Below, piece after piece: positions 7,650 to 39,600 of a stretch of DNA of 64,000 nucleotides; within the stretch, counting starts at the first letter, position 1; each line of letters starts with the position of its first letter. The notes beneath the pieces are model-generated. The model did no database searches and had not been told where the DNA came from. It saw nothing but the letters and a program-made list of their open reading frames with translations. A program made the translations under genes and the position numbers. Location: assembly GCA_023213395.1 (NCBI GenBank), contig CM041465.1:216573741-216637740 (forward strand), written 5' to 3'. The DNA comes from Cycas panzhihuaensis (lineage: Eukaryota > Plantae > Cycadophyta).

Positions 7650-7797
7650 ATGGAAGATCAAGGGCTTAATAACTTTTTAGGGGCCAATGATATTTACCAC
7701 ATAGTGGTGTGAGAAGATCTATGTCATTTCATCATACATTGCTAAATTTTACAATATGATATCTAATATTCTATGCATCATTCTAGCTTTTATTGGT
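7650..7797 (+). pseudogene. 5' fragment of an alkaline ceramidase (ACER/aPHC family)
   Basis: MEDQGLNNF/(W)GPMIFTT*WCEKIYVISSYIAKFYNMISNILCIILAFIG matches the family start FWGP.TST..WCE.NY..SSYIAEFYNTISN; one 1-nt frameshift. Confidence 0.85.
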
Positions 7798-7968
7798 TGT
7801 ACCAAGTGTAACCAATGTCAAAATTAGGTTGTACCAGTTACAACCAGGTGTGACTAGAAGTTGAGTAAAGTATGACCAAGTACAACCGAGTGTGACCAAA
7901 GGTTATACCAAGCATGGTTAAGTATGACTAGAGGTTGTACCAAGCATGACCAAGTATGACCGAATGTA
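7798..7968. repeat. Degenerate short tandem repeat (~10-bp unit, GTGTGACCAA/GTACCAAG-like)
   Basis: Repeated TGTACCAAG / TATGACCAAG / TGTGACCAA motifs directly after the ceramidase fragment. Confidence 0.6.
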
Positions 7969-9030
7969 ATAAAAATAAATCTCAAGCAATATTTTGCATG
8001 AATGGCTTTTTTATACCTAATTATGATCACACAAAAAATGATATGAACCTATTGGCACTGGACTAAAGTAGCCAATTATAACGATTTAAACCCCCATATT
8101 TTATAGTTGTGAATGTAAACTTCTATAGTAAATAGTTAATTATTATTATATATAAGCTTTGTAGCTTAAAATCATTGATGTATTCTGGCCAAAGGAGTCA
8201 TTAATGATAGCATATTATGAATTATTTTAGCCATAGAGCCAATGATGATGATATTGACATAGGTTGCTAAACATTGTTAGCCAAGAAGTATAACTTATTC
8301 CCAAATATCTAACTTTACGATATCTGTCTAATTAGGTAGTTTGACATGCTCTCGAGATATGTGTTAAATAAATACCTACTTAGTGTTGATGAACCTAGAT
8401 AATCGATAGACACAATGGTCAGTTACCCACGTAATCCAGTGGGTGGTGATGTCTTTATAAACAAGAATGATAGTCAAAGAATAGAGGTCGTATTTGGTAT
8501 AGTTTTGTATTGTATAAAATTAAATATTATGGGGGGATGTTTGAATATAATGTTTAATTTTTAAAATGTCATAGATTTATTATTTAATATAAGGGATATT
8601 ACATTAAAATATTAATTATAATTGGGGTTAGTTGTAACTTAATGTTATAAGCTAAGATGTGTGGGTATACTATGCATACACAAATTATAACGTCATTATA
8701 ACATTGATCATATAAGGTGCCATATGTCATGTTGCATGAACAACTCATCATATTCTAAAAAATGGTTTTATATTCCTATATGTATGCATTTGATATTCAA
8801 TTTAATATCAATGAATGAATAGAGAATAGATTAGTACTTTGATTATTGTTCATTGTTGTTTTTTGAATATTGAGTGTGTGCATTGTTTATCTTTCATTTA
8901 GGTCATAAAAAAATGTATTTAAAATGGTAGCAACTCTATGCAATTGAGTAAGAAGTCAATTATGAAAATCAAACATCATTGATGACTAATAATGCATCGA
9001 ATAAATGTAATCATTATCCCTTAAGGATGG

Positions 9031-11583
9031 TGTTTCCCAGCTACTGGGAATGGACTCGAGATACATCGACGCAGGTTTGTTCAGGTATATTCTCTTACCC
9101 TTTTGCCCTGGTTTGATTGAGGTTATTTAGAGTAGGATTGCTTGGCATATACCCGCCTGTGCGCATTGCTTGTCTGCTTGCTCATAATGCATGTGCCTAA
9201 CGGCACGCCTTCAGCCTATGACGACTCACAGCGGGGGCATTCTTCAGCGAATGTTACACCCCGTATGGCGCACAGCCACCCATGATGTCTCCAAAGTTTC
9301 CCGGGATTGCTTCCGCCAGTTTACTTGCTCATGTTGCGACATGTCGTTTGCGTTGCCATCCTTTCTAAGTCTAACTCGATCCTTAGTTAGGACTTTTTGG
9401 GTTGTTTTGGGTACTTGCCCACTGCCTGGGCATTCCCCCAGCTGATTTAATTCATAATTAGTTTCTGTTTTTGCTTCAAAACCCCGATTCTCGCTTGTTT
9501 TTCTTTTTAAGTTTCAGTTAATCTGCAGAAACTAAGTGGTACTCACTGAGTTTGCAGCAGCATACGTAATTTTCCGTGGTACGAATCGCTTGAAATTTAA
9601 AGAGAACCACGCTACGCTTCCGCTTTTCGCAAACTGCCGCGTGGCTCGTTCGATTGAGGCGCTCGACATCCCCAACGCTCACCGCCGTGAACAGGGGATA
9701 AAGGGAATTTTCCTCCCCATTTCCAGGACTTTTTGCTCATTTTCCAAACTTTCAAGAGAATTTCCCAAGAGACTGCACACAGGAAAGCATACAGAAAACA
9801 CAACAAGTTCATGCACAGCAACTGAGGAGGGTGAACCAGGCTGCCACCAGTGGATTTTGCAGGGCTATTGCTGCCCCTTACTACTTTCCACAACCAGCTC
9901 TGTTCCTCTTGCAGCTGCTCAGAGATTCAAGGGACTTCTTTAACCAAGAAGCTGCCCCAAAGACTTACTCCACAGCTCCAACTTCACAAGGAGCCTCTTC
10001 CATCTACACTTCAGCAGGACATACTCATAATCAGCCTCCGTTTGACCTCCATTGTTGCTGTCCCTAGTGGCAGGAGGCATGCTTGATTTCTCCACACAAG
10101 GTACCCCTTAGTTTTGCTTGCAATTTCTTGTATTTTACTTGCTTTTTTCCTTCTTTTCACTTGTACTTCCTTCTCTTTTTTTTACTTGCAAACCTTTGGG
10201 CATACTTGCAATCTTTTTTCCATTTTTACTAGCAAGCATTCCACCTCTCCTTTCTCCATGCATTACCTCTTTTACCCCATAACAGAAAGTGACTATCATT
10301 AGCCATAGCTGCCCCGTAGTGCTATCTTGACCCAAATCCACTTTCCCGGTGTTTTCTTTGGAGTCCCTCATTTTCTCCAAGCCTTCTTTTACTCCTTCCT
10401 CAGCCAGCCAGAGTAAGGGAGCATACACGGGGATTTGAGGGAGGTAGGCGGGGTTCCGTCCCCCATTGCCGTCCTTCTCCCCAAGGGTTCCGTCCCTTGT
10501 CCTCTTCCCCTTACCATACACGCTGTCTCAAGGAACGGGTCGAAGGAGTTTAGGGGATTGTGTCAAGGTATCCAGGCCGGTTCGAAATAATCTGCATCCA
10601 CCTTGTTACCACCCGGTGTTTCTCTCCCGAGCCCTTTAGGTGTGTTCCGCTTTGTGTGTGTGTGTAGCAGTTGGTAGTGTAGGAGTATCTCGTGCACTCT
10701 TATTTCGTTTTTGCTACATTCTAACACATAGCTTAGTTCATTTAGTTGAGTTGAGTTCAGTTTGCAATACATATACATATATCTCCTTGTATATTTTGTA
10801 GCCTCTCTCCTGAGAGGAAGGTGCTTTTCGTGTTTTCTCGCAGGATCACGTTGGTAGAGGTGGTGCGTGGAGTGAACCCATTGCCGGTTAGCTCTCATAC
10901 GGTATTTTCTCTCCCTTAGTTTTGAGGTTCCTTTTTGTCCTTTCATTTCATTTGGTTTCGCATGCTCACGGGGAGGTAAGTGAACCCCCTTACCACCGTC
11001 CACTGGCGTCGCGTTCGTGGAGAAAGGAGAAAGAGGGAGTGGAGCTTCGCGATATCAACCGTGCTTCTACCTCAAATGCCGGATCCATGTATTCCTCTCA
11101 TTTCTTTCGTGTTTCCTTTTATATTATTCTTGTCTTTTTGCATCTGCCTGTGTAGATAAGGATAAAAGAACATAAAGGGAAAGGAAAAAATAATCGTTTC
11201 TTTGCATTTACTTTTCTGCACCAGTTTCTTGTTTTACGTAGCATAGTGTAGACACCCCCTTTTTGTGTCAAACTTGAGCTATCCCTTTTGCCGTTTGCTT
11301 GTGCGTTGGGTCAGTTGTCCCCCCTTGCCTTTGTTGCCTTCTCATTGCCTTGAGAAGCCGCAACGCGCAAGGCGCCTCCTCTCCTTCCCGGCCATCCGAA
11401 GGGTAGGAAGGCCTTGCTTTTGCACTGCTACCTGGAAGCAACCAGGCACCTTGCAGTCCCGAACCTGCGCTCCGGCACACGGATGTCCTGCGAGGTGAGA
11501 TCCTCACTGCCTAGCCTAGTTAGTGTAGTATTTTTATATCCCTTTGCTAGACGTAGGATCACCGCCCCGCAGAGAGCGTTTCA
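9031..11583 (+). repeat. 5' LTR of the Tat element (2553 bp)
   Basis: TGTTTCCCAGCTACT...GAGAGCGTTTCA; highly similar to 22999-25578. Confidence 0.96.
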
Positions 11584-11584
11584 C

Positions 11585-11602
11585 TGACGACCATACTGGG
11601 GA
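11585..11602 (+). promoter_or_regulatory. Primer binding site, tRNA-Arg type
   Basis: TGACGACCATACTGGGGA next to the LTR end resembles the TGGCGACTC..CTGGGGA PBS of Tat/Ogre elements. Confidence 0.75.
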
Positions 11603-11857
11603 CTGCCAGTTAGGGAGCTAACTTCGCTTCTCTCTTCCGTTGGTGTTCTTGCCTCTAGGTAGTTTCTTGTTCCGTGCTTTCGGTTGGACAACCCCCAACG
11701 CGCACACTTCGTTTTCCTTTTTCTCTTTTGTTGTTTCTTCTAACAACGCTCGCAAAGGCATTGCATGCGACGTTTCTCGCGTCGCTTGCGAGGTTTGCTA
11801 CCGTTGTTAGAAGGCCAATCGCCTCATTCCCTTCCGTCGTCGAATCCCGATTCGACA

Positions 11858-14824
11858 ATGGAAGGTTACCCATCCGATTGGGCTTATCACACCATGACTT
11901 CGGGAACTCAAGAGTTCCCTTCATCTGTCCCAGAATCCGCCCATGAGGGCGATGATTCCATCTACTATCCAGATGACCAATTCCATCCAACCGACTTTCG
12001 CCCTTCCGCCCATGCAGCGGAAGATTCAACTCCTCATGAGACTCACCATCCCACCGGTGAGCCTTACAAGGAGCGTCCTGAGGGATCCCCTACTTTTGAG
12101 GTCCCATCGACTTCGTATGGCTACGAGGATACCCCTCCCGCTGACGTAGTCGAGGTGCTTAGAGAGTATTTCCGAGCAGCTCGCCGTCAGCTGCATCCTA
12201 GATGGTTTGAAGAAGTGTTGCGCAACGTAGCATCTTCCTCATCCATCCCCGCGCCTTCTACAATGATTGACGCTCGTCACAAGACATCTGCCCCATGCCG
12301 TGTCTACTCCCGGCCCCAGTGACCAGCGTTGCCACTGTTTCTAGCCGAGGTCCTGCTTCTTCCGGACCCGTTCGTGGCATGTCCCTTCCCCAACTCGGGG
12401 TTAGCATGCCGTTTTCAAGCCAAACGCATGCGTCACCTTCAAACGTGGCACAAGCGTTCCCTAGTAGGCCTCGAGGTCCTACTAGCGCTGCCGCCGTCAA
12501 CTATGTAGGACCTACTCCTACATACGTTCCAAACTCTGCTGGTGGTCCTTCCCTTTACGTGCCCCCAGGTTACACGTCTCAACCGTGGGGGCAAGTTAAG
12601 GGGAACCATCTCCCTGTTTATGGGGTGGACCCGTTGCACCCATATGGGGTTGCGCCACCTATGGGTGGCCCCTATGGGTAAAACCCAGTTCCCCACCCTG
12701 CGTTTCCATCATCTAGTGCAACTCCCATTGTCACACATCGCAAGGGAGTATACCTCCTTTCCGAGCATTTACCCAACCCCTTTCCAACAAGGGGCGTTTC
12801 CCCAAGGAGGGATGGGTTTACCACCCCCATCCATTCCTTTGCCAGTCGTCGATCCATTAGCCCAAGCGAGGACACGTCCTTTCATGGACTACAGGTCGAC
12901 GCCATTATTTGTTAAGGCGCTAAGGACCAACTTGCCGCCTCACCCCCCTGAAGTTCCCAAATTCGACAGAACTTCGTCGCAAGACCCAACCGAGCATGTA
13001 CGCAGCTTTTCCATGGCGTGCATCGATTATTGGGCTTACGACCATATCTTGATGAAGCTCTTTCCGCGGTCCTTGCAGGGCGACGCCCTCAAGTGGTTTT
13101 ATCGCCTTCCCGCCCATTCGATCTCCTCATTCCAGCAATTGGTGGACGAGTTCGTCAACTATTTTGACGTAGCCCGTCCATTCGAAAGCGGAATGAAGGC
13201 GCTTCTGTCGCTTAAACAAGGTCACGACGAGATGAACCGTGACTTTGTGCGATGCTTTCATGATCTTCTTCACTCTACCAAGGCCACGTTGCCTGAAGAG
13301 TTGAAGCGAGATCTCTTCGTCAATGCACTTCGCCCCGAAGTGCATGTGGAAGTCCTTAAGATGGAGGCAACCACATGTGACTCCACGATTATGAGGTGCT
13401 TGGCGCTGGAGGCTATTGAGATCCAGGCTGGACTCAAGAAACCTCCTAGGCCCTCGCAACGTCACGAGGCGCCTCCCCCAGCGAATGAAACCAAACCTTC
13501 GCAGCTCGCTAGGTCCGCCTCCCATCCGACTGAGAGGACCCTGGACCCCCTTACTTCCGCTATTCACTCGTTCGAGCGAACGATGAAGGAGTTAAAACTC
13601 CAGCCTCCTTCGTCGCCGACCTCTCATAAACCTATCCAACAGGCTTCTCGTGCGATACCCCCCAAAGGGGGCAACACCTAACCTTCTCAAGCAAGGAGGA
13701 TCGATCCTCCCCTTGAGAAGAGGTGGTGTTCCATCCACGGGGAGTGTTTCCATGACGATGCGCATTGCCGGGCATAGCAGCCACGCGACGCCTCGCCACG
13801 CGATTCGTCCCCTAGGCGAGCATCGAGGCCTAACCTCGATCAGCCTATTCATAGAGACCCGTTCCCCAAGCATGGGGAACGTGGTCGCATTGTTTAGCAA
13901 AGGAACAATCAGAATCGGGATAGGTCTCCCGATCCTCGCCCTTCGCATGGTAGAGGGAAGGGTGTGTGAAGGTCACATTCCCCTTCGCGCTCCCCTGACC
14001 GCCGTGCTTCATCACCTTCGCGGTCCCATAACAAGGGAAAGAAGGTGATCCAAATGCTTGAGACCACTCCTCTTTACGCTTTAACCCGGTCTTAAGCCGC
14101 AAAGGAGGCAGCAGGTGCCTCTGTGTCCGTCTCGCAACCCGATCCCCCTCCGGAAGTTGTTCCTCCGGAGATCCCTGCACTTCCCAAGAGTATTCCTCGT
14201 CGCCTGTGTCGATTCGACTTTAGGAGGGCCCTTACCCAACCTACAGGGAGGGGTAAGCCTTTCTCCGTAGTCGAAGAGCTTCTTATTGTGGCTGCCGGGA
14301 TGTCCATCATGGACGTCTTGAGAAGTTACCCGGAGCAACGAGCGCTCCTCTTAGAAGCTCTTGGATCAAATGATGTGTCTGTTCATGCCTTGGGTACAAC
14401 CCCAAGTAGTGAGCCCGTTATCTCCTTCGATCCCAGAGATCTTCCCGCGTCTAGTGGAAGGGAACGCCAATGGAACTTCCCTTTCACTATTACGATAGAT
14501 ACTCTTGATTGCACGTTGCGAAGAACTGTCGTGGACAACGATTCTTCTGTCAATGCCATGCCTTTGCGCGTTATACAAGAGCTTGGCGTTTCCGCCTTGG
14601 AACCTGTTCCATGGCGTTGTCAGGGTTATGACGGTACCAAGAAGACTCCCTTAGGATCTGTCTCGATACCCCTTACCCTCGAGGACAAGACTGTCGTTAC
14701 CGACATCGTCGTCCTTGATATTGATGTCGATTACAACTTGCTCCTGGGTCGACCATGGCTTGACCAAATGGGAGCCGTGTGTTCTACCCGTTGGGGGCAA
14801 CTTAAATTTGTCCATAATGGATAA
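11858..14824 (+). pseudogene. gag: gag + aspartic protease (frameshifted)
   Basis: Pro-rich N-terminus; Retrotrans_gag-like LFPRSLQGDALKWFYRLP...SFQQLVDEF; CX2HX4HX4C knuckle WCSIHGECFHDDAHC at about 13725-13775; protease VVDNDSSVNAM...YNLLLGRPWL. Confidence 0.9.
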
Positions 14825-17800
14825 ATGAAGGTTGTCTCCCGCAAGCAGCCACTCGCCAAGCCAGCTAGGCCTTCCGCCCAGGCAAGCCATGGCCATGCGA
14901 AGGGAAACAAACGCCCTTCCGACCATGTCTCAGCTTGCTCCATTGGAATCCCCAATTCCTCTTACCGAGAAGAAGATCCCACACCTTCTTCTCCTGGTTT
15001 GACGCGCTTCACCCCCATTGGTGTCGGGAGCTATGGGTATCTCGCCGTGTTTGATGACGACGGGTCCCATAGCGAGGATGAGGATTGTCCTCACCCCGTT
15101 TCGTTTCTCCGCACTAGTGTGGGGCATCCTCCTAGTCCTAGGTTTCCTCCTATGACCCCTTTTATTGTAGAGCCTGGTCATTTTCATATGTCACATAACA
15201 TTGCGCATGTTGATCATCCTGTTCCTGGCTCTTCCGTCCCGTCACCTCACATAGGTGACGATGTCGAGAGTTCCCCTCTTGCTTTTTACGAGGGGCCTTT
15301 CCTCAACTCTCCTTCAGAGTCTCTTAGGGATGATGGGCAGTTTTCAGGCCATACCGGTCCTATCGCTCCCACGCTATCCCGCGCCTCGCCTATTCGAAGT
15401 CAGGTCATCCATGGGGTGGACTACTTCGAAGACGATGAGGCTTTACTGGAACACTTAGCTGGTTCCATGCCGAGTTTGCCTCCTGGTCACCACAAGCTTG
15501 GCCACCAGAAGGTCTTAGCGATTGGGTCCCCATTAGCCGACTCGATCCCCTCTTCCGCTTCCTCCCTTCCGATTGATCTCGCCCCCCTCCATTTCGAGGA
15601 GGGGAATGCCATGTGCATGGGGGCAACCCATGACATAGTCCTTGCCCCGGACAAGGTCATCAAAGTAGGAGCGAAATGCACTCCTGACGAAGTGAGGGAG
15701 TACGCCCTTCTGTTCCAAGAATTCCGTGATGTATTCGCATGGGATTACTTGGATATGAAAGGCATTGACCCCTCCATCGTCACGCATAACCTTACGACAT
15801 TTCCTAACGCTCACCCCGTGCATCAGAAGCAGCGTCCCCTTCACCCGAAGCTTTCAACTGCCGTTAAGATGGAAGTTGAGAAGCTTCTGGAAGCGGGACT
15901 TATTTCCTCCATCGATTACCCCAAGTGGGTATCGAATATCGTTCCCGTTGCTAAGAAGAACGGGACCATTCGCATTTGTGTCGATTTTCGCGACATAAAC
16001 AACGCTTGTCCTAAGGACAACTTTCCTCTTCCCTTCATTGATCAAATAATCGACCGTACGACTGGATTCGAGGTTATGTCCTTGATGGACGGCTTCTCTG
16101 GCTATAACCAGATTCAGATTTCTCCTGAAGACCGCCATAAGATGGCCTTCACTACACCATGGGGTACCTTTGCCTACAAGGCAATGCCCTTTGGTCTTAA
16201 AAATGCAGGGGCTACTTATCAAAGAGCCATGCATTTTATCTTTCACGACCCCATCAACAATACGATGGAGGTCTTCATGGACGACATGATGGGTCTTTCT
16301 CGTTCCAGAGCCCATCATCTTTTCGACTTGCGCGCCATCTTCGCAAGATGCCGCAAGTACCACGTTAGTTTGAACCCGCTGAAATGCGTGTTTGCCGTTA
16401 CTTCAGGCAAACTCCTCGGGTTCCTCGTGTCCTAGCAAGGAATCCAGATCGATCCGGAGAAAGTCAAGGCAATCCTTGACATGCCGCCACCTAGGACCCA
16501 ATGATAAATTAAGTCGTTTCTAGGCAGGCTTGGTTTCTTGAGGCATTTTTTGGCAGATTTTGCCATAAACGCCAAGCCTCTTACAAACCTATTGAAGAAA
16601 GGAGCCCCTTTTGTCTGGTCAGACAAGACCCAAAAGGCCTCAGAGGGGCTCAAGGAAGCTCTCGTTCGCCTGCTACCGGTGCCTCCTCGCCTGATAGGGC
16701 CCTTCATCCTATACACCTCGGTACCTAATCCCTGGGTGCAATGCTCTTACAGGAGGACGATTCGGGAACCGAGAGGGCTATTTATTTCATCAGCCACACT
16801 CTTGTTGCCGCTGAATTAAACTATCCTCCCGCCGAAAAGGAATGCCTCTCCTTGGTCCATGCGACCAAGAAATTTCGGCATTACTTGCTCGGTAATACAA
16901 CCAAGGTGATCGTCCAATCTGATCCCTTGCGTTACTTGCTTACACGTTTGGATTTAACAGGTAGGATGGCTCGTTGGGCCGTCCTGCTTCAAGAATTCGA
17001 CATGCAGGTTGTCAACAGGAAGTCGAAGAAGGGAATGATAGTAGCGGAACAGTTAGCCAATGCTACCATTCCCAACGCGAGCAGCGTTCCCGTTGATGAC
17101 TCTTTACCGGACGAGTCTATTATGACAGTCCAGGATGCTTCTCCTCACCCACTCGCCGACAGCGAGTGGTATGGCGACATTGTGCGATATCTGACTCAGC
17201 AAGAATATCGCCCTGAAGCCAGTAACAAAGTTAGGTTGTGTATCCGCGCCACCGCCAGGCAATACTTCCTCATAGATGAAGTGTTATACAAGAGATCTTT
17301 CGATGGGATCCTGCTTCGCTGCATCGCTCCTGACGAAGCGGACCAAATACTCTGCGAATGCCACCATGGCATTTGTGGGGGCCACTTTGGGGGCCAATCC
17401 ATGGCCCAAAGGATCCTCCGCATGGGCTATTACTGGCCATCCTTGTTCAAGGACGCCCACACTTGCGCACTTCGATGTCGGCGTTGTCAGGAGCACGCCA
17501 ACGTCTCTCACCTACCTTCCGAGGCGTTACACCCTATCGTGTCTCCGTGGCCCTTCTCCCAATGGGGTTTAGACCTCATTGGGGCTATATCACTGCCATC
17601 TTCCGCACAACATAAATATATCTTAACCGCTACTGAATACTTCACTAAATGGGCAGAGGCGATCTCCCTGTCCACTACCCCTGGCAAGACGATAGCCACC
17701 TTCGCTCACCAAAGATATTATCTATCGTTTCAGAATTCTAGACGTCCTAATTACGGATAATGGAACTTCCTTTTGTAATAAGGAAATGGACGAATTGTGC

Positions 17801-18412
17801 GAGAAATTCAAGATCTCGCATAAGACGTCATCCCCTTATTACCCCCAAGCAAACGGGCAAGTTGAATCTTTCAACAAAACGCTCGTTGGCATTTTGAAGA
17901 AAATCGTTGCCCAGTCTCAAAGAGACTGGCATATCCAGCTCCCTTCCGCTCTATGGGCTTATCGCACCTCCATCCGGACAGCTACCGGGATGACCCCATT
18001 CTCGTTAGTTTACAGAACCGAAGCAATACTCCCATTGGAAGTGGAGATCCCTTCTCTTCGGGTTTCCCTTCGAGGCCTCATTGACGAGGAGTCTATTCGC
18101 CAGGCTCGCCTCCTGGACCTTGAAGCCCTGGATGAGAAGCGCTTAGCGGCTTATCAAGCGAACCTCGCTTTGAAAGCCCGTTTGCAAAGGATACATGACA
18201 AACATCTTCATGTTCGTCCTTTGTGTCCCAGGGACCACGTCCTCAAATTGGAGTATCTTTACGATCACTTAGCCAAATTCGGGCCCAAGTGGGTAGGCCC
18301 CTTCGTCGTTCTCGAAAGCCTCGATAACGGTGCGTACAGGATCGCCACTTTGGACGGCTTGGAATTTGAGAAAGCGGTCAATGGAAAGTTCCTCAAGAAA
18401 TTTTACGCGTGA
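14825..18412 (+). pseudogene. pol: pol: reverse transcriptase, degenerate RNase H, integrase
   Basis: RICVDFRDINNACPKDNFPLP, MDGFSGYNQI, MPFGLKNAGATYQR, VFMDD; RH NY..AEKECL; INT H..ICGGH..C..CQ, WGLDLIG, ITDNG, PQANGQVESFNK, GPF; several stops and frameshifts. Confidence 0.95.
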
Positions 18413-19130
18413 CCTTTCCACTCTTTTCTTCCCCATGCTCCGAAATGAGCCTAAACTACCATTTTAAATTGTTTCCATTCTTCCCAATCACGGGTAGAAT
18501 GGCAATTTAAGATGGATTTTCGGTTGTTCTTCCGGTTCCTCCCACGGAACCTGCGTTCCCTAGTGCTCTCGGGAACCTTTGTCCTCATATTTTGGGCATT
18601 CCCCAAACTAGGACTACGCTGTGGAGTATCGTTACTCCCCTCTCGTGCTTGTTGTTTCCTTCGCATATTCTGCTATGTTCCCCTGTGGATGTGCATGTCG
18701 CCCTATTTTCTAACCTCACACCTCTCGATCACCTCTACTCACGGTGGATGTGTGTGCTCCTGTTAGACATATGGCCATACATGGAAGGAAACACGTGCAT
18801 GTGTATATTTATAAAATCTACATATTCAGATATTTATATACTTGCATATTTACATACAACATTTACAACATATTTACAACATTTGCAACATACAAAAAAC
18901 ATTCATTTACAAAAGTAAACCATGCATGCTATCTCTATCATATGTGATACATGCCATTTCATGCCAAAATGGGGTTACAACTACCCCATGTGTATATATA
19001 TATCAAAATGTCATAATACATCATGTGTATGAGAAGCCGGGATCCTTGCAAGGGGGGTACAATCATGTGAGCCTACATATGACCCCCTGGAGGCCCGTGC
19101 TTTCCCGTCAGACCTATACATGTGTGTCTC

Positions 19131-21067
19131 CTAGTCTACTGCTGCCGTCTGCACAGGAGTCCCATCTCCCAGTCTCGTGTGATCCTCTCCTGGGGACCAC
19201 ATCCCTGCGAGGCTCCTCCTGGGCCTCCGCGAGCTGCCTGCCTCGCTCTCCTCGTCCCGAGGCCGTCTTGGGGTCGTAGCCGCTATATGTATGTGTGTCT
19301 GGCTCCGGCTCGACCTCGAGACCATCTGCGCCACCAGCTGGTCGTAGCGGACCTAGATGCGATCCCTCTCACCTCAGAGTCCCTCCTCGATGGCTCTAAA
19401 CCTCTCCTCTGATGCCTTAAGGCGCTCTTCTAGGACTGTTAGGCGAGTGCTGCTCCCTGCATCTCCTCCTGGCCCGCTCTGTGTCTCCAAGGCCTGGATC
19501 CGTCCACGCAGCTCATCTCGCTCGCCCCTGGTCATGTCGAGCTCTCGCTGCACCGCCCTGTGATGCCATGTGCTCCAGGTCTCTGCAGCCGGATGTCTCG
19601 ACTCGCCAAGGGGCGAACGCCTGCATGTAGGCTCCTACTGATCTAGGCGCATCCTCCGCCTGGATGGGCGGTTGCCCCTTTGCGTAGACCTGAGGGAACA
19701 TCTCCCTCACCATGGCCTCGACCAGCCTCTGCACCTCTGCTACTCCTACCAAGGCAACATGCCATGTGTCAGTGTACATACTCACTGCATATCATCATAA
19801 AATGAAATCAAGATCTGTCTAGATGTCAAACGACTAAGGAAACGGTTAGGTCTCACCTGCCGTGGCCGCCGGATCCTCTGCTCGGGCGACATCCTCATCT
19901 CCTGGCCCTCCACTAACCACAGGTACCTCATCCTCAGGTACGTCTTCTGCCTCTGCCCTGTCTCTGGCAGGGACTGACTCGACCATCACCTCCCCGGATC
20001 TTCTCACGATCCGTAGCCTGCGCCCTCCGGGTCTCCGCCACCGCCTGCCTTAGGAGCTCGATGGGCCGTGATGGACCTGCCTCTCCTGCAGGTCGTGATG
20101 GGCCAGCCCCATCTCCCCCGTCATCGCTATCATTGCCCCCATCGTCATCGTCATCATCGTTGTCGTCGATGGGTGCTCCTGCTCCTCCTGCTCCGCTATC
20201 ACTCTCCCACCTCACTGCTCTGTAAGGCTCTGCTGTGTAATCTGTTAGAGTGAGGAGGTCGAGTGATGTTGCGTCGACTGACCGACGGACATGGGCCTAG
20301 TCCTCTGTCCCTCAGAGTCTGGTCTGCCACCTGTGGACCATTAGGGCCCACCTCGCTATGGGGAATGGCCCCTCACGGCCGCCACCGCCGCAAAGTGATA
20401 AAACCCAAGATCGCAAAGAACGGGCTGTATGAAAATCCTCCTCACCCCGATCTCCTGATAGTGTCTAGTTGGGCGACGAGGTTCGCCGCAACTAGGGTGG
20501 CCCAATCCATCCTCTCGCTGGCCTCGCACCGGTGCTCTGCGTCCACCCATCCTCCTGGAATCTCCCTGTAGTTTTGTTTCTGGGAAATCTGGAACTGAAT
20601 GCATAGTAGGATGAGTTTCCTCGCTCGAGGAATCTGCAACATGAGTACCGTTTGGAGGGGAGCTCCCCTTCGCTGCCACCTGTCTGCCCCCATGAGGAAC
20701 TGAGCCGCCTCCCTGTGTGCTGCCTCGGTGCTAAGTAGCGTCCTCAGTCTCACGGGTCTCCCTGTCGCTAACACCCCCAGGATCCGCCTGATATCCCCTG
20801 GGGTGATAGTAATGTCTTCTATCTAAGGCAAGTGAAATACATGCCTCCTCCTGTCCCAGTGCGATACTATGTCCACTAGGAGTCGCTGATCTGATGCGAA
20901 CTGGGGGGTCTTGTGGCCTTGTACAGCCGCATCTCTTCGTGGTCGCCTGCCTCCTCCTGGCCGCCATCTCTAGGTAACTCAGATGGGCATGCCGACGCTG
21001 CCATTATCCACCGCCAGAATCGCTCGCATTCATCAAAGTCAGTCAAAGTTAGTCTCCTAGCAGTCAT
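19131..21067 (-). pseudogene. Antisense Plant Mobile Domain (PMD, MAIN/MAIL-like) gene with acidic and coiled-coil C-terminal parts, one predicted intron
   Basis: Minus strand reads DQRLLVDIVSHWDRRRHVFHLP*IEDITITPGDIRRILGVLATGRPV (cf. PMD L..LVERW..ETHTFHLP.GEMTITL.DV..ILGLP..G.PV), then MDWATLVAANLVAQL, a poly-Asp stretch and ELRGRIQALE..LEERL; GT-AG intron 19856-19785 keeps the frame. Confidence 0.78.
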
Positions 21068-21690
21068 CTAGGCTCCTAACTGCTTGTCTGGTTGTCTTTT
21101 CTGGCTTTCAGGGGCTGTTTAGCCCCTTGTTTATTTTTTTCTTTTTTTCTAATTTTCTGTCTGCGTACCGCTCCAAATTTAGCGGTACCACTAAATTTGG
21201 AGTAGGTCCCGCGGGGATTGCTTCTCTCCAGCGATACCGCAGCCAAGATCGCGGTGTCGCGATCTTGGTCATGCAGATCACGCAAGAACCCCTGTAAAGG
21301 GGTTTTTTGCCCAGAAAATCAGAAATTTTTGTGGTGGACCCCCCGTGGGGCCCGCCGGGACCAAGGCTGCCTAATGCCCAGGTCCCCGCCTCTTTCTAGG
21401 TCCAATTCAGACTCCGAGAGGCCTCTAACTGCCCATGAGGGGCATAAAAAGCATTAAAAAATTAATTAAAAGCAATAAACTTTAAGCTTCGAAATGACAA
21501 GGGTTTCGTTAGATCCACTCACTCGGTTTGGCCTAACCGTCGCCATCTCGTCTCGGGGGTCGTGATGGCTATCTCCGCACTCGAATCGGCTGACTGCCTC
21601 TCGTGTGTCTCGAGTCGGGCTCCGTCAGAAGGAAGAGGCTCTGGTTTCGCACGAGAGCCGGTGAAAATGAATTCAATTTTCATTGTTTTT

Positions 21691-21700
21691 CCTTATATAG
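21691..21700 (-). promoter_or_regulatory. Candidate TATA box for the antisense gene
   Basis: CTATATAAGG on the minus strand, ~620 nt upstream of the ATG at 21067, next to a C-run. Confidence 0.4.
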
Positions 21701-22227
21701 GGGGGGGGCCCGATGGGCATTTCTTCCGTTTTTTGCTCCGTGATAGTCGTTGGGACCGTCTCGTTGCCCTGATAGCCTTTGCCTTCTGGCCCTGTCGTCC
21801 ATTGTGCTTCATGGACGCCCTCTCTGCCTCTCCTTGCGGGGGCATTTATGGCGCCTCATTTCTGCACTTTTGGCAGGGCCCCTTCGGCATCGTTTTACGC
21901 GCTACTCTCGTGCGTGCCCGAGTTTATACTCGTTTGGCTTGTTTCGTTGCCCGGGACTCATTTTTGCAGCCCTTTTTCACCCCTGGGGTGCCCAAAGGAA
22001 ATGCTCCCCCCGTCTGGGGGCATGTTTTGCTTTCCTAAGCAACCTTGGGCACCCCAGGGCATCCTTCCTCTGCCCACTCTCAGCCAGTGGCCGGATTACT
22101 TGCTTTCATTCTTGGGTAACCTCATTGCTAGGTCTTCCTACCCTTCTCGGCCCCTTCGCGCTTGCCATTCGAGTCTTTGTTTTGCTTTCATTACTATTTG
22201 TTTGCTGCCAGAGCTTAGTGTCCAACT

Positions 22228-22646
22228 ATGTCTCTCATTGTTTTCACCGATGGTGGAAGTCGCGGCAACCCCGGACCTTCCATGCAAGGTGATTCTTCGC
22301 AGCCCCTCCGGACACGATTTCTTGCATTCCGGGGTCTTTCTTCCCGAGGCTACCAATAATGAAGCCGAATACATGGCCGTTATTGAAGCCCTTACTGACG
22401 CTCTCCGTTTCCATCGCAGTTCCATTGTGTTATTTTACGATTCTCAGGTCGTGGTGTCCCATCTCATCCAGGTTTACCAGGTGTGATGCCCTCACCTGAG
22501 AACCCTCGCCGCACGCTGTGTCTCTTCTAGCTTGCTTCTCGTCAGTGGATATTCAGCATATCCCGAGGCACCTCAACGCTGAGGCTAACAGCCTCGTCCG
22601 CCTCATCCTTGAGCGTCGCCTCCCTCATCTTGATGACCGCCCCTGA
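22228..22646 (+). pseudogene. Stand-alone additional (archaeal-type) RNase H, aRH
   Basis: Own ATG: MSLIVFTDGGSRGNPGPS/..VILRSPSG...ATNNEAEYMAVIEAL...YDSQVVV...IQHIPRHLNAEANSL...RP*; RNase HI motifs DG.SRGNPG, TNN.AEY, DSQ, H.PR..N..A(D>N).L; two frameshifts and one stop. Confidence 0.9.
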
Positions 22647-22988
22647 GGCTTGCCCGCCACTGCGCCCAAGTCTCCGGTTGCTTTTGGTTAGATTACTTGC
22701 TATGTTTCGGATGCCCTCCTACTTGGCGTTGCGCTTCAAGAATGGGGCATCCCCTTTCTTCTTACTTCCTTCGGTTTCCGGTCGATGTTTAGACGACACG
22801 TAAGCAGCCCTTACGTTGTCCTCGTCTCCGTCTCTCTTGTCCATGCGTTCCGCCACGACACTCACCTACGCCCTTGGTCCACGTGCTGCTCTTTATTGCT
22901 TATATATATATATGCATGTGCTACTCATACTTTTGATTGTCAGCATTCGTCATCACATTATGCTTCCGAGCAGTGAGGCTCTGCTGCC

Positions 22989-22998
22989 AAGGGGGTAG
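22989..22998 (+). promoter_or_regulatory. Polypurine tract of the Tat element
   Basis: AAGGGGGTAG immediately before the 3' LTR TG. Confidence 0.85.
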
Positions 22999-25578
22999 TG
23001 TTTCCCAGCTACTAGGAATGGACTCGAGATACATCGACGCAGGTTTGTTCAGGTATATTCTCTTACCCTTTTGCCCTGGTTTGATTGAGGTTATTTACAG
23101 TAGGATTGCTTGGTATATACCCGCCTGTGCGCATTGCTTGTCTGCTTGCTCATAATGCATGTGCCTAACGGCACACCTTCAACCTATGACGACTCACAAT
23201 GGGCATTCTTCAAATAATGTTACACCGTATGGCGCCTGACCACCCATGATGTCTCCAAAATTTCCGGATTGCTTCCGCCATTTACTTGCTCATGTTGCGA
23301 CATGTCGCTTATGCGTTGCCATCCTTTCTAAGTCTAACTCGATCCTTAGTTAGGACTTTTGGGTTGTTTTGGGTACTTGCCCATTGCCCGCCATTCCCCA
23401 GTGATTTAATTCATAATTAGTTTCGCTTTTGCTTCAAAACCCGATTCTGCTTGTTTTTCTTTTTAGTTTCGAGGTTAATACCGCCAGAAACTAAGCAGAT
23501 CTGAAGTTTGCGCAGATCACAGAATTTGCCGCGGTACAACTGTTTGAAATTTAAAAAAAAGAGAACCACGCGACAGTTTCCGCTTTTTTCGCGAAACTGC
23601 CGTGTGACTTCGTTCGATTGGAGGCGCCCTGACATCCCCAACGTTCACCTGCTGTGAACAGGGGATAAAGGGAATTTTCGTCCCCATTTCCAGGACTTTT
23701 TGCTCATTTTCCAAACTTTCAAGAGAATTTCCCAAGAGACTGCACACAGGAAAACATACAGAAAACACAAGTTCATGCACAGCAACTGAGGAGGGTGAAC
23801 CAGGCTGCCACCAGTGGATTTTGCAGGGCCACATCGCCTTACTACTCTCCACAACCACTGCTCCTCTTGCACCGCCAGAGATTCAAGGGACTTCTTCAAC
23901 CAAGAAGCTGCCCCAAAGACTTACTCCACAGCTCCAACTTCACAATGAGCCTCTTCCATCTACACTTCAGCAGGACATACTCATAATCAGCCTCCGTTTG
24001 ACCTCCATTGCTGCTGTCCCTAGTGGCAGGAGGCATGCTTGACTTCTCCACACAAGGTACCCCTTAGTTTTGCTTGTAATTTCTTGTATTTTACTTACTT
24101 TTTTCTTTCTTTTCACTTGTACTTCCTTCTCTTTTTTTTACTTGCAAACCTTTGGGAATACTTGTAATCTTTTTTCCATTTTTACTAGCAAGCATTCCAC
24201 CTCTCCTTTCTCCCTGCATTACCTCTTTTACCCCATAACAGAAAGTGACTATCATTGGCCATACCGCCTGTAGTGCTATCTTGACCCAAATCCACTTTCC
24301 CGGTGTTTTCTTTGGAGTCCCTCATTTTCTCCAAGCCTTCTTTTACTCCTTCCTCAGTCAGCCAGAGTAAGGGAGCATACACGAGGATTTGAGGGAGGTA
24401 GGTGGGGTTCCGTCCCCCATTGCCGTCCTTCTCCCTAAGGGTTCCGTCCCTTGTCCTCTTCCCCTTACCATACACGTTGTCTCAAGGAACGGGTCGAAGG
24501 AGTTTAGGGGATTGTGTCAGGGTATCTAAGCCGGTTTGAGATAATCCGCATCCACCTTGTTACCACCCGGTGTTTCTCTCCAGAGCCCTTTGGAGACCTC
24601 CCATGGGTGAGTTAGCCATCCCGAGGCTATACTCAGTTCCGCTTTGTGTGTGTGTGTAGCAATTGGTAGTGTAGGAGTATCTCGTGCGCTCTTATTTCGT
24701 TTTTGCTACATTCTAACACATAGCTTAGTTCATTTAGTTGAGTTGATTTCAGTTTGCAATATATATACATATATCTCTTTGTATATTTTGTAGCCTCTCT
24801 CCCGAGAGGAAGGTGCTTTTCGTGTTTTCTCGCAGGATCACGTTGGTGGAGGTGGTGCGTGGAGCGAACCCATTGCTGGTTAGCTCTCATACAGTATTTT
24901 CTCTCCCTTAGTTTTGAGGTTCCTTTTTGTCCTTTCATTTCATTTGGTTTCGCATGCTCACGGGGAGGTAAGTGAACCCCCTTACCACCGTCAACTGGTG
25001 TCGCGTGCGTGGAGAAAGGAGAAAGAGGGAGCGGAGCTTCGCGAGATCAACCATGCTTCTACCTCAAACACTGGATCCAGGTATTCCTCTCGTTTCTTTC
25101 GTGTTTCCTTTTATATTATTCTTGTCTTTTTGCATCTGCCTGTGTAGATAAGGATAAAAGAACATAAAGGGAAAGGAAAAAATAATTGTTTCTTTGCATT
25201 TACTTTTCTGCACCAGTTTCTTGTTTTACGTAGCATAGTGTAGACACCCCCTTTTTGTGTCAAACCTGAGCTATCCCTTTTGCCGTTTGCTTGTGCGTTG
25301 GGTCAGTTGTCCCCCCTTGCCTTTGTTGCCTTCTCATTGCCTTGAGAAGCCGCAACGCGTGAGGCGCCTCCTCTCCTTCTCGGCCATCCGAAGGGTAGGA
25401 AGGCCTCGCTTTTGCACGACTACCTGGAAGCAACCAGGCACCTTGCAGTCCCGAACTCAAGGCCTCCCAAGACACGGATGTCCTACGAGGTGAGATCCTC
25501 ACTGCCTAGCCTAGTTAGTGTAGTGTTTTTATATCCCTTTGCTAGATGTAGGATCACCGCCCCGCAGAGAGCGTTTCA
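22999..25578 (+). repeat. 3' LTR of the Tat element (2580 bp)
   Basis: Direct repeat of 9031-11583 followed by TSD GATGG. Confidence 0.96.
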
Positions 25579-26505
25579 GATGGACATTTCACTATTTCAC
25601 TAGTAACCATATCAAGTTTCTAACAACCCAATACTATTGAATTATATAGATTTTTGTGGAAAGAAAAACTCATTGGTTTGATAGGCCTAAGTAGCACATA
25701 CAACTTTGTTGACATAAATTTCACCTTAAGAATAGATCTTTTCATTAACAAGACGAAGACCTTTCGTATAATAATGCATGAAGAATGACATATTATATAT
25801 AACGATGAAATTCCATACTAGAAACTCCAAATCAAAACCCTTATATATTTAACTACCTCTTATGCCTTCTCCATTGGCACTATGGATGTTGTATTAGGTG
25901 TTGAATGGTTAAAGTAGTTAGGCACCTATGGATGAAACCAGAAGGAAAATTTCATGTGCTTCTAATGGAACAAGAAGCTTTACTAATTCTTAGGAATTAC
26001 TATATTGAAATCTAAGATCATTCCAACCATGAAGATGGATAAGCTTCTTAGAAAAAGATATGCTAGTTTCATTACCCATCTATACTCTATAGAGGCCCAA
26101 ATTAGATGAGGAACAACTATAAGAGGACTAATAATAGGATCTTCAAAATCTCCTTCAACGGCATCGTAAAGTCTTCCAATTAATTCCTAGTGTGGCTCCA
26201 CCAAATTATGGAATGAAACTTGTTAACCAACTATATTTGTCTCCCTAAATAATTGTTAGTGACTGAGATCCAAAGCACATTGAAATCTGTTTGCACTATT
26301 TTATAGGAAATAAATAGTCTTAATGGGTATACCAAGTAGAAAATTATTATAATACTTCTTATTATGCCATAATAAAATGTCTCTATTCCTTACCCTATAT
26401 AAGTATCCTCTACTAGCTACTCATAAAATTTTCTAGTCTCTATCAAAGCCTTAAAGTAGAACAACTTTAGTAGTAGACCAATAATATCTTGTTATCCCTC
26501 AAAGA

Positions 26506-29581: not shown

Positions 29582-32500
29582 TAAAGATAGTGAGGGAATA
29601 GAGAAGAATGTAGAAATCTGGAGTGTTATTTTATTAAATCTTTTAAGTATAAATACATAACTGAGAGGTTCGCATGATGGATACTTATCATCTATAAATT
29701 ACCTATTCTTTATGCATTAGAATAATAAATAAAGAATCAAAGAATGAAGAGATAAGAAAGAATGAAGAATGACTATTTATCAATTCCTCCTTGCTAAGAA
29801 GAAACTATCCCCAATTTCTACTGAAGATGGGGAAAATTATGGAGGAGAGTTTTTTTTAGATCCACTTGGCTTATGTGGGTCAGGCTCATTTTCTACCAAT
29901 GAGGTATGTTATGGTGAGATGATGTCACGTGCAACACTATCTAGTATCCAACAAAGTATCTTCCTACAGTGGTGGTTGAAAGTTAGGAATAGTATATAAT
30001 GGATGTGTAGGAGGGGGTTCAACTTCTAACTGCAAGGGCTCATATAATTTTAATTGGTTGATGTTTACCACATTGTGAAAATATGTAAGTAAGTTGAATT
30101 GATAAGCATTGGGGTTGACTTATTGAAGAATGGTATAAGGTCTAAACCTTATAGTTTTGAGCTTACGATGGTGTTTGAACCTTCTTCTATCTAAGTGGAG
30201 CCAAACACTATCACTGACACTGAAACTAGTTGAGACTCAACGTTGATCATATTGAGTCTTGTAATTTTTTTTAGTGTGGTGTAGTATCTGTTTGACTAAT
30301 GTGTGTAGGTATGAAAGATGCTCAATGAAGCTAATGACATTTTGTTGTTCCTTGTCTTTATACTTAGTGGCTAGAGATGGTGATGTTAAATGAAGTTCGT
30401 ATGGGGCTAGAGGTTGGTAGTCATAATAAACTTTGAATGGAGAGTGTCATGTTGATCAATGAACTATTGGATTATAGTTGTGTTGAATATGGTGGAGTTG
30501 TATATCCCATTGGTTATTATAAAGCTTAGAAAATAAGGGCTTAAACCAATGTCTTGTTAACCATTTTAGTTTGGCCATTTATTTATGGATGAAAGGATGT
30601 AGAGTAACTTGAGCTAATATTAGAACATCTTCCATAAGGATTACTAAAAGTGACTTAAGAAATGACTATTCCTATCTAAAATGATAAAGAGTGGTAATCT
30701 AAAATCGATCCAAATATGTTGGACAAAAAGTGTGGAGGCCTGCATGGCAGATATCCCCTTTTTGCATGGTATGAATATGGCTATTTTGGAGAATTGAAAT
30801 ACCACAACAAAGATGCAGTCATTTCCATATTGTGTGGTGGGTAGTTTGTTAAGGAAGTCTATTGATATTAATTTCCATGGTCAACTTGGGGCTGGTAATG
30901 GCTAACAAAGATTGAGCTTCCTATTGGCTAGCTTAGATTAATTGCGTAGGGATATTTATTGAATGTATGCTTTGATAATTTTCTACATGGGTGGCCAGTA
31001 AAAGTATTATTGCAAATGTTGAAGTATCTTTTGAATCCCAAAATGACTGTTATAATAGGATGAGTGGGCTTCTTTAAGAAGTTATTGTCATGGGGTATTA
31101 ATAGGTACACAAAGCTTATTATGTTTGTATAATAAGCCATCCTTAATATGGTAATCTAAGTAAGGTTCTTGATTGGTAGTTGTTAGATGTACCAATGCCT
31201 ATATAATAGGATAAAAATAAGAATCAATATGGTATAAATGTCGCTAATCAATATAAGAGATAACGTGATTGTTTAATGTTATGATGAGTACTACTATTAG
31301 AGGCTAGTTGAGGAAATTTTCTACTTTATTAGATGCTCCTTTCTTATACTTAATAATGAGGTTAAATTATTATATAGAAGATGCCCACTTGATATGCATA
31401 TGCTCCTAAATTTTTAACTAGGTGTTAAAGAACTGTAATGGTTGATGATCAGTATGAATTATGGTTCCTTTGCCTAGTAGGAAATGTCACCAATATTTAA
31501 GAGTTTGGACAAGGGCATAGAATTCCTTGTCATATGTGTTATAACTAAGCTTGTATTATGAGAATTCTTCTAAGTAAAAGGCAATAGGGTGTCCTTCCTA
31601 CTTAAGTATTGCACCCAGAGTAAATTGAGAGGCATCCATCTTGAGTTTAAAGGGTTACTCCTCATTGCATAGTTGAAGGACTAGGGTCATGCAAAGGGCA
31701 ACCTTTAATTTCTAGAATGTTGATTTGCCCTAAGGACTTCATATAAATTCCTTTGTGCTACTAGTAAGAGCATTCAATGGGTGTGTAATGCTTGAAAAAT
31801 GCCTGATGAATTTTTGGTAGAAGTTGACACTATCTAGGAAGCTTTTGAGCTAGGTAAGGTTGTTGGGAGTTGGCCAATCCTTTAAAACTTGGACCTCTGC
31901 TAGTTTGACTTGAATTCCATGGTAATTTATGATAAAGTTGAGATAAGAGATATTAGTTTAGCTAAAAGAGCACTTCTTAAACTTGGCCTTTAATTGGTGT
32001 TTTCATAACAGTGACAAAACTATGTCAAGATTTTTTTATGCTCCTATAAGGTCTTATTGTAGACCAATATGTCATTGAGATAAATAATAATAAATTTGCT
32101 AAGATATAGGTGAAAGATGTCAGTGATAAGTCTCATGAAAGTGGTGAGAGAATTGGTAAGTCTAAAGGGCATCACAAGCCATTCATATAATCCATGTTAT
32201 GTTTTGAATGCTATCTTCCAAGTATCCTTGGAGTCCATTCAGACTTGATGGTAGTAGGAGGCCAAATCAATTTTGGAGAAGTGTTTTGCTCCTTAAAGCT
32301 GATTGAGCAAGTTATCTATGCATGGTAGAGGGTACCTATTCTTCAATGTTAGTTTATTGAGAGCTCTATACTCGATACACTAAGTCATTAGTCATTACCT
32401 TTTTTAGGCACTAGAATTACTGGGGATCTACAAGAGGAGCAATTGGCCTAGATTTTTCCTTCATTTATTAATTATGCTAATTATCTTTTGAGCTCATCTT

Positions 32501-36629: not shown

Positions 36630-39600
36630 CTATTACAACATAATAAGCTAGTGGAAGAATGAATAATCTTCAATATTATATTGATAAATTATATATACTT
36701 ATACAAACATTCATGTTTATAAGTCCAATCATCTAAGAGAATCGCTAACACATCTGATAAAAATTACATGAATAATTGTGAGCATTTACATACTTCTTGA
36801 TGGTTCTTATATTTTAATAATAATAAATATGAGAGAGTTGGGGAATTTAATTAAACATTAAACTATATAATTAAATATCATACTAACATTCTCTTTTGTA
36901 ATATTTAATTATATAAAATATAATAAATGTCACATACAAAATATATTAAATCTTCCTTTATTATACCAACATTCTCTTCTAGAAATTTTCAAGAGGTTTA
37001 TCTTCATGAGCAAACACCACTATTTTAAGTCATTAATTTAAACAACTTCATTTTTAATGGTTCTTCAATCATCAACTATTTACTAACATTTATATAAAGG
37101 ATCCACCATCTACTAGTCTACATGAGTAATTAACCTCTATAGTTGGTAGTTTACTAAGAGTTTTGTTTTTTTATATCATTCATTAATAATGATAATATTT
37201 AATACACTAAAGGAATAAGCTAAATTACCTCAGTAGATGAATATACTAAAAACACAAGAGTAACTTAAATATCCTACCTCTTAGGTATGGCATTCAACAC
37301 ATCAAGTGTTTTTTGGTGAAAAAATGTAGCTTTAACCATTGGCATTTTGTTGAAAATATAAGTCAATATGGAAAAGTAGCTTCAAACTCCTACCTTTTAT
37401 AAATGATCTTTAGGAAATATAAAAGAATAACTTGAATTGTGACTTTTTTTTTTTCTCTCTCCAAAAAATCTTTTGACTTCTCTATTTAAAAAATCTCAAT
37501 TCCCATGACATCAATCAACCTTTTAAAAAAAAACCCTAAGTACTATCTCTCTTTTGAGTATATTTTCCATAAAAGGTACATTTGAAATCATTGAGAAATG
37601 ATCATAGAGCTAATATTTTATTATGTTAATAAAAATATGCTCAATTTTTAAAAAAAAATTAAACCCATAAAAGAATTACCCACACTTATCTTAGTTTTGA
37701 CCTTAATATCTACTTTAAAAGTAAATCAAGTAGGTATATGTTACAAATCTTATCAAAGGTATTAAAATGAGTTATCTAATACATCTTTCCAATCTAAAAT
37801 CTGATAGCATATAAGGAAGTTATAAAGAAAATGATGAGTATAGGTGCTAAAAAATAAGTATTCAGCTAAAATTTTGGACTTAGCCTCTTTTATATTTGGT
37901 ATTTGGTTATCTAAAAAAAAATATATGACTATATGCAAGTATTATGGGATAGACTTGAAATTGGTTTTTAATTGGATTAATTTTTTGTAAACTTTACAAA
38001 ATATATAAATATATTTCATTATTTTTAATGTTTATAGATTATGACTTGTGACCTGTGTTTAAATTTGAGATCAACTTTTGATCTCTTTAAAATATGTCTA
38101 TAATAATTTTAGAAATATGATTCATAATGAACATCTACATCTATAGTTTACATATTACCATTCTTAAGCTCATGGATATGATGCTCACAGTCCATATTCT
38201 CAAAGCACTGCATAGCTCTTTGGGTGTCTGTACAACCACATTTTAAACATTCATTGCACCGATCTTCAACATATATACTTCCTTGGAATCTATACATAAT
38301 AATATATGAAGTTACTTTGTGATTATGTCTACTATCCACTCAACTTAGCATCAAGTATTTCATCTTCTCTTTTAAGTTCAGTCTGCATAATATTTGAACT
38401 AAAATGATCTTCTCCCTCATGGTTTCTCAACGTCTATATTTGATGCTCACTCAACCACTTTATCTCAAGGCCCTATCACATGCTTAAGCTTATTAAGATT
38501 TAGCATTTGATGACTTTGATCTAAATGGACTTTGTGCTAGGGATTTATCCCTAATTTCTATGTTCTTACATTCTAGAAAACTCACATTTAATATTCAAGA
38601 TTAAAGAAGGAGGTTTTGGCATCTCACTTTTAACAACTCTTCTTCTTAGGTTTTATGATCTTTAATAGATTTAGCACTTATTACCTCAAATATATTATAG
38701 CTTCTTTTTCTTATGTGGGTTTTTGTAGTTGCTATGTTTTCAAATATTTCAAAATTTTCCAAAAGATATAGGCATTACAAGTTAGTCACGTTTTTCATTT
38801 GGTGTAGGGTTTAGCCATTCCAAGATTCTTCAACTTCAATGATCATATCTCAATATGAAAAACCTTATGGGTTTTCTTGCTTGTTTTTTTATAGTTCTTA
38901 TGGCCCCTTTACATGCTATATGTTTTCATATTGTCTTGACTACAATTCTTAATTTATGGGTTTCTTACACTAAATATATTTGACATTATGAGTTTAACTT
39001 TAAAATACTTGTATGTTATATATGGGCATACCACATACATATATATTAGTATACTAAATTAATATTCAAGAACGATCTCATTGTTAATTTAAGATCTCAA
39101 CATTAAGGCTCTTTGTAGACTTCACAACACAATGCATGTAGCCATTATTTGTTAAATCTAATATCGATTAAAAATAAAAAAAACATGAAATCTTGAATTT
39201 ATGACCCTCACTTTAAAACCTATATGTAAAATTTTTTTGGGCCAACATGCATAATAATATGTCATAAAAATAATTTCTCAAATTATTTTAAAATAGCTAA
39301 GTTTAATATAGAATATAAATAGCTAGCTTCATCATAAATAACTTGCTCTAATTCATTTATTAGCTATATCAGACATCAACACAATAGCTTTTACCAAATG
39401 GTTCCATTGGCTCTTATATTTTAGGAATAAACCCTCAACTCTAATATCTCAAAAATAAACTTTAAATTATGATCTTTCAGGAATAAACACCCAACTCTAA
39501 TATTTTAGGAATAAATCCTTAGCTCTGATATGTCAGAAACAAACCCTTAGCTCTAATACCAATTATCAGGAATATAAGATGAGTAATAATACTCTAATAT

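Follow-up and report, generated by a model that had tools for sequence, protein, structure and literature searches.

Can a retrotransposon draw its RNase H from a gene that stands apart from pol, and how would such a gene be expressed and its product brought to the reverse transcriptase (RT)? The question is raised by a 64,000-nucleotide stretch of Cycas panzhihuaensis DNA (the window), which holds a Tat (Ty3/gypsy) element of 16,548 bp (9031-25578) with the 5-bp TSD GATGG on both sides. Our analysis suggests that the intact relatives of this element would supply an RNase H of about 140 residues as a separate enzyme, likely made from a spliced mRNA and predicted to act in trans with RT. The layout has been in print since 2019-2023 and would not surprise a specialist. 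Two of the papers concerned leave open whether the archaeal-type additional RNase H (aRH) belongs to Pol and how it might work when its ORF stands apart; the latter is asked directly in PMC10508981, and both points stand open in the accessible parts of these two sources (PMC10508981; PMC13468544).

The aRH gene and its setting

The aRH gene lies on the sense strand, running from its ATG (22228) to a stop codon whose last base is 22646, in an element whose order is pol, antisense ORF with a plant mobile domain (PMD), aRH and polypurine tract (PPT) (Table 1). Its distance from the integrase stop is 3,815 nt and from the 3' LTR 352 nt, in agreement with the 3.8 kb and roughly 350 bp of the preliminary description. 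Pfam RVT_3 matches the middle piece of the gene (67 aa, E=1.9e-6), and a profile of aRH and its relatives matches archaeal-type RNases H in the PDB (3u3g, E=2.9e-30; 4e19, E=1.1e-29; also 3hst). A profile search across the 64 kb found no second aRH. Of the free-standing ORF proposed earlier, the ATG and stop of its own, the RNase H match and the sense orientation stand, but the frame is not open: three frames have to be combined to read the gene, which shifts near 22282-22290 and again near 22510-22519, and the middle piece contains an in-frame TGA at 22484-22486. The N-terminal piece carries the first Asp, the middle piece the Glu and the second Asp, and the C-terminal piece the His and Arg; the fourth acidic position is Asn in this copy. 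The nearest in-frame stop upstream ends at 22218, 9 nt before the ATG. This stop, a Met at the same place in three Logan relatives and an intact ORF in the related locus L001 bear out the suggestion that aRH is made as a separate polypeptide.

Table 1. Features of the Tat element, in window coordinates
Feature	Position	Strand	Remark
TSD left, GATGG, 5-bp	9026..9030	.	
5' LTR, 2,553 bp, TG...CA	9031..11583	+	
5' splice donor in 5' LTR, consensus-like AG/GTAAGT	10976..10981	+	candidate, putative use
Primer binding site	11585..11603	+	4 mismatches to site in locus L034
gag frame	12509..13681	+	Retrotrans_gag E=4.5e-9; gag split over several frames here
Protease frame	14096..14824	+	Peptidase_A2B E=0.004
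RT frame	14825..16435	+	RVT_1 E=1.1e-24; premature stop at end
Native Ty3/gypsy RNase H	16703..17070	+	first catalytic Asp absent (FILYTS); frameshift near 16725
Integrase (H2C2, rve, SH3)	17161..18412	+	frameshift near 17700; stop ends 18412
Antisense extra ORF, decayed	19117..21067	-	limits approximate
TATATA, box-like, between antisense ORF and aRH	21694..21699	.	putative promoter role
T-rich tract ending CAG	22160..22211	+	candidate 3' splice acceptor, 16 nt before aRH ATG
aRH, archaeal-type additional RNase H	22228..22646	+	free-standing gene, broken here
Polypurine tract	22989..22998	+	
3' LTR	22999..25578	+	
TSD right, GATGG, 5-bp	25579..25583	.	

The two LTRs differ by a K2P distance of 0.067 over 2,526 columns, and the donor-like AG/GTAAGT of the 5' LTR is also present in the 3' LTR, at 24968. 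The primer binding site is, we presume, of the tRNA-Arg type. GC content is 45-58% within 9031-25578 and about 24-38% in the flanks, a difference that points to an element much younger than its surroundings. In the antisense ORF, Pfam PMD was matched at 20448-20909 by a frame read through stops (E=1.7e-4; 21.3 bits, under the curated cut-off of 34.9), and no PMD was found by Pfam on the unbroken pieces of the ORF; Atlas gave the same lead (0.89).

The rest of the window contains remnants of other elements. On the minus strand, a second Ty3/gypsy element, chromovirus-like by eye, has left decayed fragments of RT and integrase at 30350-32400 that share 26-29% identity with the corresponding Tat pieces. 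They are enclosed by direct repeats (29584 and 35002) that may be its LTRs. At 52218-59858 (minus strand), two direct repeats of 430 bp that are 90% identical lie on either side of a decayed Ty1/copia polyprotein, recognised by eye. The AT-rich tandem array at 50986-51756 has a period of about 327 bp, itself built from shorter subunits. Three old direct repeat pairs (201-2522, 4689-8903 and 36632-39962; 77-85% identical) are probably LTRs or duplications of eroded elements.

Native RNase H and pol

The preliminary description had pol running directly from RNase H into integrase and the native RNase H (RH) lacking its catalytic start, and both observations hold. The RH-INT junction reads LPDESIMTV...EWYGDIVRYL in a single frame with no aRH between the two domains, and at 16703-16720 the native RH reads FILYTS, without the first catalytic Asp (FILYIS in an older copy in the window). 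The loss is not special to the window element: none of the 29 related loci displayed, out of 80 (those whose match reached RH and fitted the motif pattern), keeps this Asp, and L001 lacks it as well. Judged by motif, the catalytic core of the native RH is degraded. The pol of the window element is itself broken, with stops after RT and two frameshifts (Table 1).

The older copy, heavily decayed, is also a Tat element (43100-48100, plus strand) and retains gag, PR, RT, RH and INT; its RT is 40% identical to that of the young element, to which it is sister in a quick RT tree (96, on a long branch). Its RH joins INT without aRH. Behind it no aRH, LTR or 3' region is recognisable, the copy being too decayed or truncated.

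Sibling copies and selection on aRH

Is the broken aRH a property of this copy or of its family? Sibling contigs were compared from six distinct sequencing runs with six organism codes; 16,402-36,683 contigs per run align to the stretch, which indicates a very large family, and the stretch was found in 20 of 21 listed runs (13 organism codes), none of which is recorded as RNA. The stop codon within the window's aRH differs in 64-78% of contig depth in four runs, indels occur at both frameshifts in the contigs that span them, and the codon for Asn at the fourth acidic position differs in 93-98% of sibling depth. The differences at the stop and frameshifts imply that the breaks belong to the window copy and not to the family. 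Among the sites listed, taken away from the breaks (13 rows at the two breaks were left out), 14 of 27 aRH sites are synonymous, against 34% expected (p=0.04); for intermediate-frequency sites alone the count among those listed is 9 of 19 (p=0.16). This synonymous excess lends weak support to selection on aRH.

Relatives and lineage

Among 80 related loci gathered with an RT alignment, aRH lies right after RH in 47, before RT in four and after INT in one, and none was shown in 28. The single post-integrase case is L001, which is also the best RT match (62-63%). Between 3463 and 10740 it has an unbroken 2,077-aa gag-pol with its stop at 9696, followed 91 nt later by the ATG (9788) of an intact 140-aa aRH ORF. 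An antisense frame comes after aRH in L001, and it has no similarity to the antisense ORF of the window element. L001 is apparently an intact post-integrase element and would be a good natural substrate for tests of mechanism.

An RT tree built from 40 of the 72 rows, after removal of long and redundant ones, places the window element as sister to the L001 clade (86/77). It rejects a grouping with RH-aRH-INT elements (p-AU 0.001) and does not reject a link to the copia-like group (p-AU 0.245). The RH+INT tree (24 rows) places it between L001 plus the copia-like group and the angiosperm-type group, not joined to L001, and rejects none of the three placements tried; Tat I is drawn in that same intermediate position in the accessible part of PMC13468544. 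With 45 rows, the aRH tree groups the window's aRH and three Logan relatives with the Ginkgo protein Gb_11691 (95/90), apart from both the conifer-type solo aRH and the pol-borne aRH. Gb_11691 (P0283) is a full 142-aa ORF, 55% identical to the window's aRH over 64 aa, whereas its nearest relatives in Logan (P0192, P0194 and P0195) are truncated.

In the best 120 of 3,118 short aRH proteins, all four acidic residues are present in 86 and the Arg in 115, and a Met stands 10 or 12 residues before the first Asp in 101; the search covered proteins of 36-254 residues and cannot itself show an absence of fused forms. One solo-aRH cluster has 530 members. A homologue search with a 69-residue region of aRH gave no match, and neither did two scans of viral contigs. 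Gb_11691 has been annotated as a gene of Ginkgo although it is a solo aRH of retrotransposon type, and in metagenome sets the name "ribonuclease HI" is given to hundreds of solo aRH of the conifer type (the cluster of P0200); such proteins may pass as host or bacterial genes.

How does this compare with published lineages? TatIII is defined by an aRH after INT, with lengths of 12,682-17,270 bp, a 5-bp TSD in 92% and an eORF-3'R in 18% (Neumann et al. 2019, PMC6317226 and its supplement, as far as accessible); a primer binding site of the tRNA-Arg or tRNA-His type is expected in this group. In an earlier account, in the part accessible, the same group appears as lineage III, with the aRH placed at the C-terminus of Pol and a PMD ORF in antisense (Ustyantsev et al. 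2015, PMC4408406). A separate aRH ORF was then described in Pinaceae/conifers, Ginkgo and Cycas, with a native RH degraded in all aRH-bearing Tat structures and not in the aRH-less Z1/Z2 (Biryukov & Ustyantsev 2023, PMC10508981). Its structure #3 is put "upstream of pol" in the main text and given as INT.aRH in Table S3, and its cluster I comprises Cpan_3 and Gbil_4 (Fig. S3, Table S3; excerpts of PMC10508981). The structure has since been named "post-integrase", with a "solo aRH" ORF, and whether this belongs to pol or is a 3'UTR ORF is called controversial (Prokopeva et al. 2026, PMC13468544, accessible portion).

The window element follows the Ty3/gypsy order, its only aRH lying after INT and outside pol, and does not show the Ogre/Retand arrangement of aRH between RH and INT. 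With TatIII and lineage III it shares a sense aRH after INT in a separate ORF (broken here, intact in L001 and Gb_11691), a 5-bp TSD, a length within 12.7-17.3 kb and an antisense 3' PMD ORF, the last by the sub-threshold match given above. Its aRH is of the archaeal type, with D, E, D and Arg in the pieces and Asn at the fourth position. We therefore regard it as likely a broken copy of the described post-integrase gymnosperm lineage, TatIII or structure #3. Cluster Tat I is the likely placement within it, since the aRH groups with that of Ginkgo, apart from conifer Tat H; this membership rests on one protein, Gb_11691, which we infer to derive from a Tat I element. A genus of many species with a Ginkgo-like Tat I would suggest a cycad as host. 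Tat I (Cpan_3, Gbil_4) has the same GAG-PR-RT-RH-INT-aRH order, separate solo aRH ORF and degraded native RH, but the LTRs detected for its two members measure 263 and 347 bp in the accessible tables, against 2.55 kb in the window. Novelty, which the preliminary description had made conditional on a comparison with TatIII, largely falls away: a separate post-integrase aRH with a degraded RH is already published (PMC10508981; PMC13468544, in the portions accessible).

The window differs from L001, which appears to represent conifer cluster Tat H, in that its aRH lies beyond the antisense ORF and adjoins the PPT, whereas in L001 aRH follows pol by 91 nt and the antisense frame comes after; the two aRH also belong to different subgroups of the aRH tree. 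Cpan_3 or Gbil_4 may have their aRH at this far-3' place too: the accessible texts and tables on Tat I give no INT-aRH distance, antisense-ORF order or transcript (PMC10508981; PMC13468544). Ogre/Retand (RH-aRH-INT) and TatI/TatII (aRH before RT) share with the window element an archaeal aRH with the active-site Arg and the loss of the first RH Asp, but there aRH is a domain of Pol, whereas here it is a separate gene.

Expression of aRH

How could a gene so far from the 5' end be expressed? Directly before the aRH ATG, L001 reads TTGCAG/ATG, which ranks first of 477 AG sites, and the window's CAG at 22211 ranks 13 of 562, outranked by twelve sites in the element, on a splice score that was untrained and set by hand after the sites had been seen. 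The tract leading to this CAG is 48% T, against 28% in the 3' region. In proteins, a Gln precedes the conserved Met in 17 of the 36 aRH called with an upstream extension (243 examined). It recurs in four of six conifer-type subfamilies (49-68% identical among each other) against a background of 1 in 134, in a test that reads protein only (CAA also encodes Gln) and across subfamilies that share ancestry. The exceptions are one 16-protein subfamily without it, one with the Gln at -3, and the window-type P0192, which has Ala. The pattern suggests a conserved splice acceptor and lends indirect support to the spliced transcript envisaged in the preliminary description. Five ATGs lie upstream of the gene between 21700 and 22227, which argues against a simple unspliced leader.

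We give an even chance to an aRH mRNA spliced from an upstream donor, the best candidate being that of the 5' LTR at 10976, to an acceptor before the ATG. Foamy viruses make Pol from its own spliced mRNA, and aRH would likewise be a 3' gene with a spliced mRNA of its own if the splice is real. In barley Bagy2, a precedent for a spliced 3' sense ORF, splicing joins a 5' donor to the env-like gene at the 3' end (PMC7264820, accessible part); the window element would be alike on the same condition, although the product of Bagy2 is envelope-like and that of aRH a replication enzyme. We found no literature on solo aRH expression: in the accessible text, PMC13468544 has no occurrence (0) of "splic", and PMC4408406 uses it of Ogre alone. 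The acceptor-like signals before the ATG and the far-3' place of aRH were not found in the texts consulted and would be modest additions to them.

Two other routes of expression have to be set against this one. An internal promoter near the TATATA at 21694 could drive a short sense transcript from which a small leader intron (22116-22211) would be removed and which would terminate in the 3' LTR. Besides the box itself, the sequence GTAACC at 22116, which resembles a donor and precedes the CAG by 96 nt, the head-to-head arrangement of aRH and the antisense PMD ORF, and the promoter of its own that maize Grande gene23 has in the 3' region (PMC7264820, in the part accessible) fit such a route. 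However, none of the five ATGs between the box and 22227 falls within 22116-22211, so all would stay in the leader, and L001 offers little room, with only 91 nt from pol stop to aRH ATG; we consider this route, the main rival, unlikely. A junction of aRH to the end of Pol, by splicing or read-through, would package it within Gag-Pol. It would solve the problem of packaging, and it accords with the 2015 description, which puts the lineage III aRH at the Pol C-terminus (excerpt of PMC4408406), a point since called controversial (PMC13468544, likewise in part). Yet the in-frame stop ending at 22218 sits between the CAG at 22211 and the ATG, so that no fusion could pass through this nearest acceptor, and the pol end of the window lacks a strong donor. 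L001 has a pol stop and a separate aRH ATG, and the place of the Met is fixed in 101 of the best 120 of 3,118 proteins. An in-frame Pol-aRH splice sought by eye in L001 was rejected as likely due to chance: the strong donor at 9557 is out of phase with the ATG acceptor, and another pairing would remove the integrase end. The locus itself argues clearly that the gene is separate, since pol and aRH stand 3.8 kb apart with an antisense gene in between; a Pol fusion is very improbable.

A proposed separate RNase H acting in trans

Under the reading that we prefer, the donor in the 5' LTR (10976) would splice to the acceptor before the aRH ATG to give an env-like mRNA, from which a separate RNase H of about 140 aa would be translated. 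This protein would enter the particle by binding RT with its dead RH as a "tether", Gag or the RNA, and, as a free enzyme, would degrade the template RNA in trans during reverse transcription. That aRH enters the particle in one of these ways and degrades template RNA seems to us slightly favoured. A service to reverse transcription is indicated by the published correlation of aRH presence with native RH decay (PMC10508981).

The same correlation bears on a different role, in which solo aRH would be an accessory outside the particle, for example one that clears RNA:DNA hybrids at the element's own loci, with RT using host or residual native RH. An obvious targeting extension is lacking in the aRH proteins, whose Met stands 10-12 residues ahead of the first Asp among the best 120 of 3,118, and in the window the gene sits beside another accessory ORF, PMD. 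Against this, native RH decay tracks aRH and is absent from Z1/Z2 (PMC10508981), which ties aRH to the RT step, and the same domain lies inside Pol in 51 of the 52 aRH-bearing loci; an accessory role is improbable. Least credible of all is a dead passenger decaying neutrally in the family. The broken window copy, the marginal synonymous excess and the truncated P0192, P0194 and P0195 would fit it, but the breaks are not family-wide, the Ginkgo relative Gb_11691 is a full 142-aa ORF, and hundreds of intact conifer-type solo aRH proteins exist.

We return, then, to a separate RNase H acting in trans. As a broader and more tentative proposal, to which we give somewhat less than an even chance, post-integrase Tat elements may have split their replication enzyme in the manner of env: a donor in the 5' LTR, an acceptor kept from conifers to Ginkgo and cycads, a gene free to move and a free aRH that docks on RT. 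Such a splice would free aRH to move, so that it could lie directly behind pol, as in one lineage, or next to the PPT, as in the window. From the acceptor-like signal, precise junctions can be predicted, and existing gymnosperm RNA data could bear them out or rule against them. Should they be borne out, these elements would be an example of a retroelement whose RNase H comes from its own spliced message and is delivered in trans.
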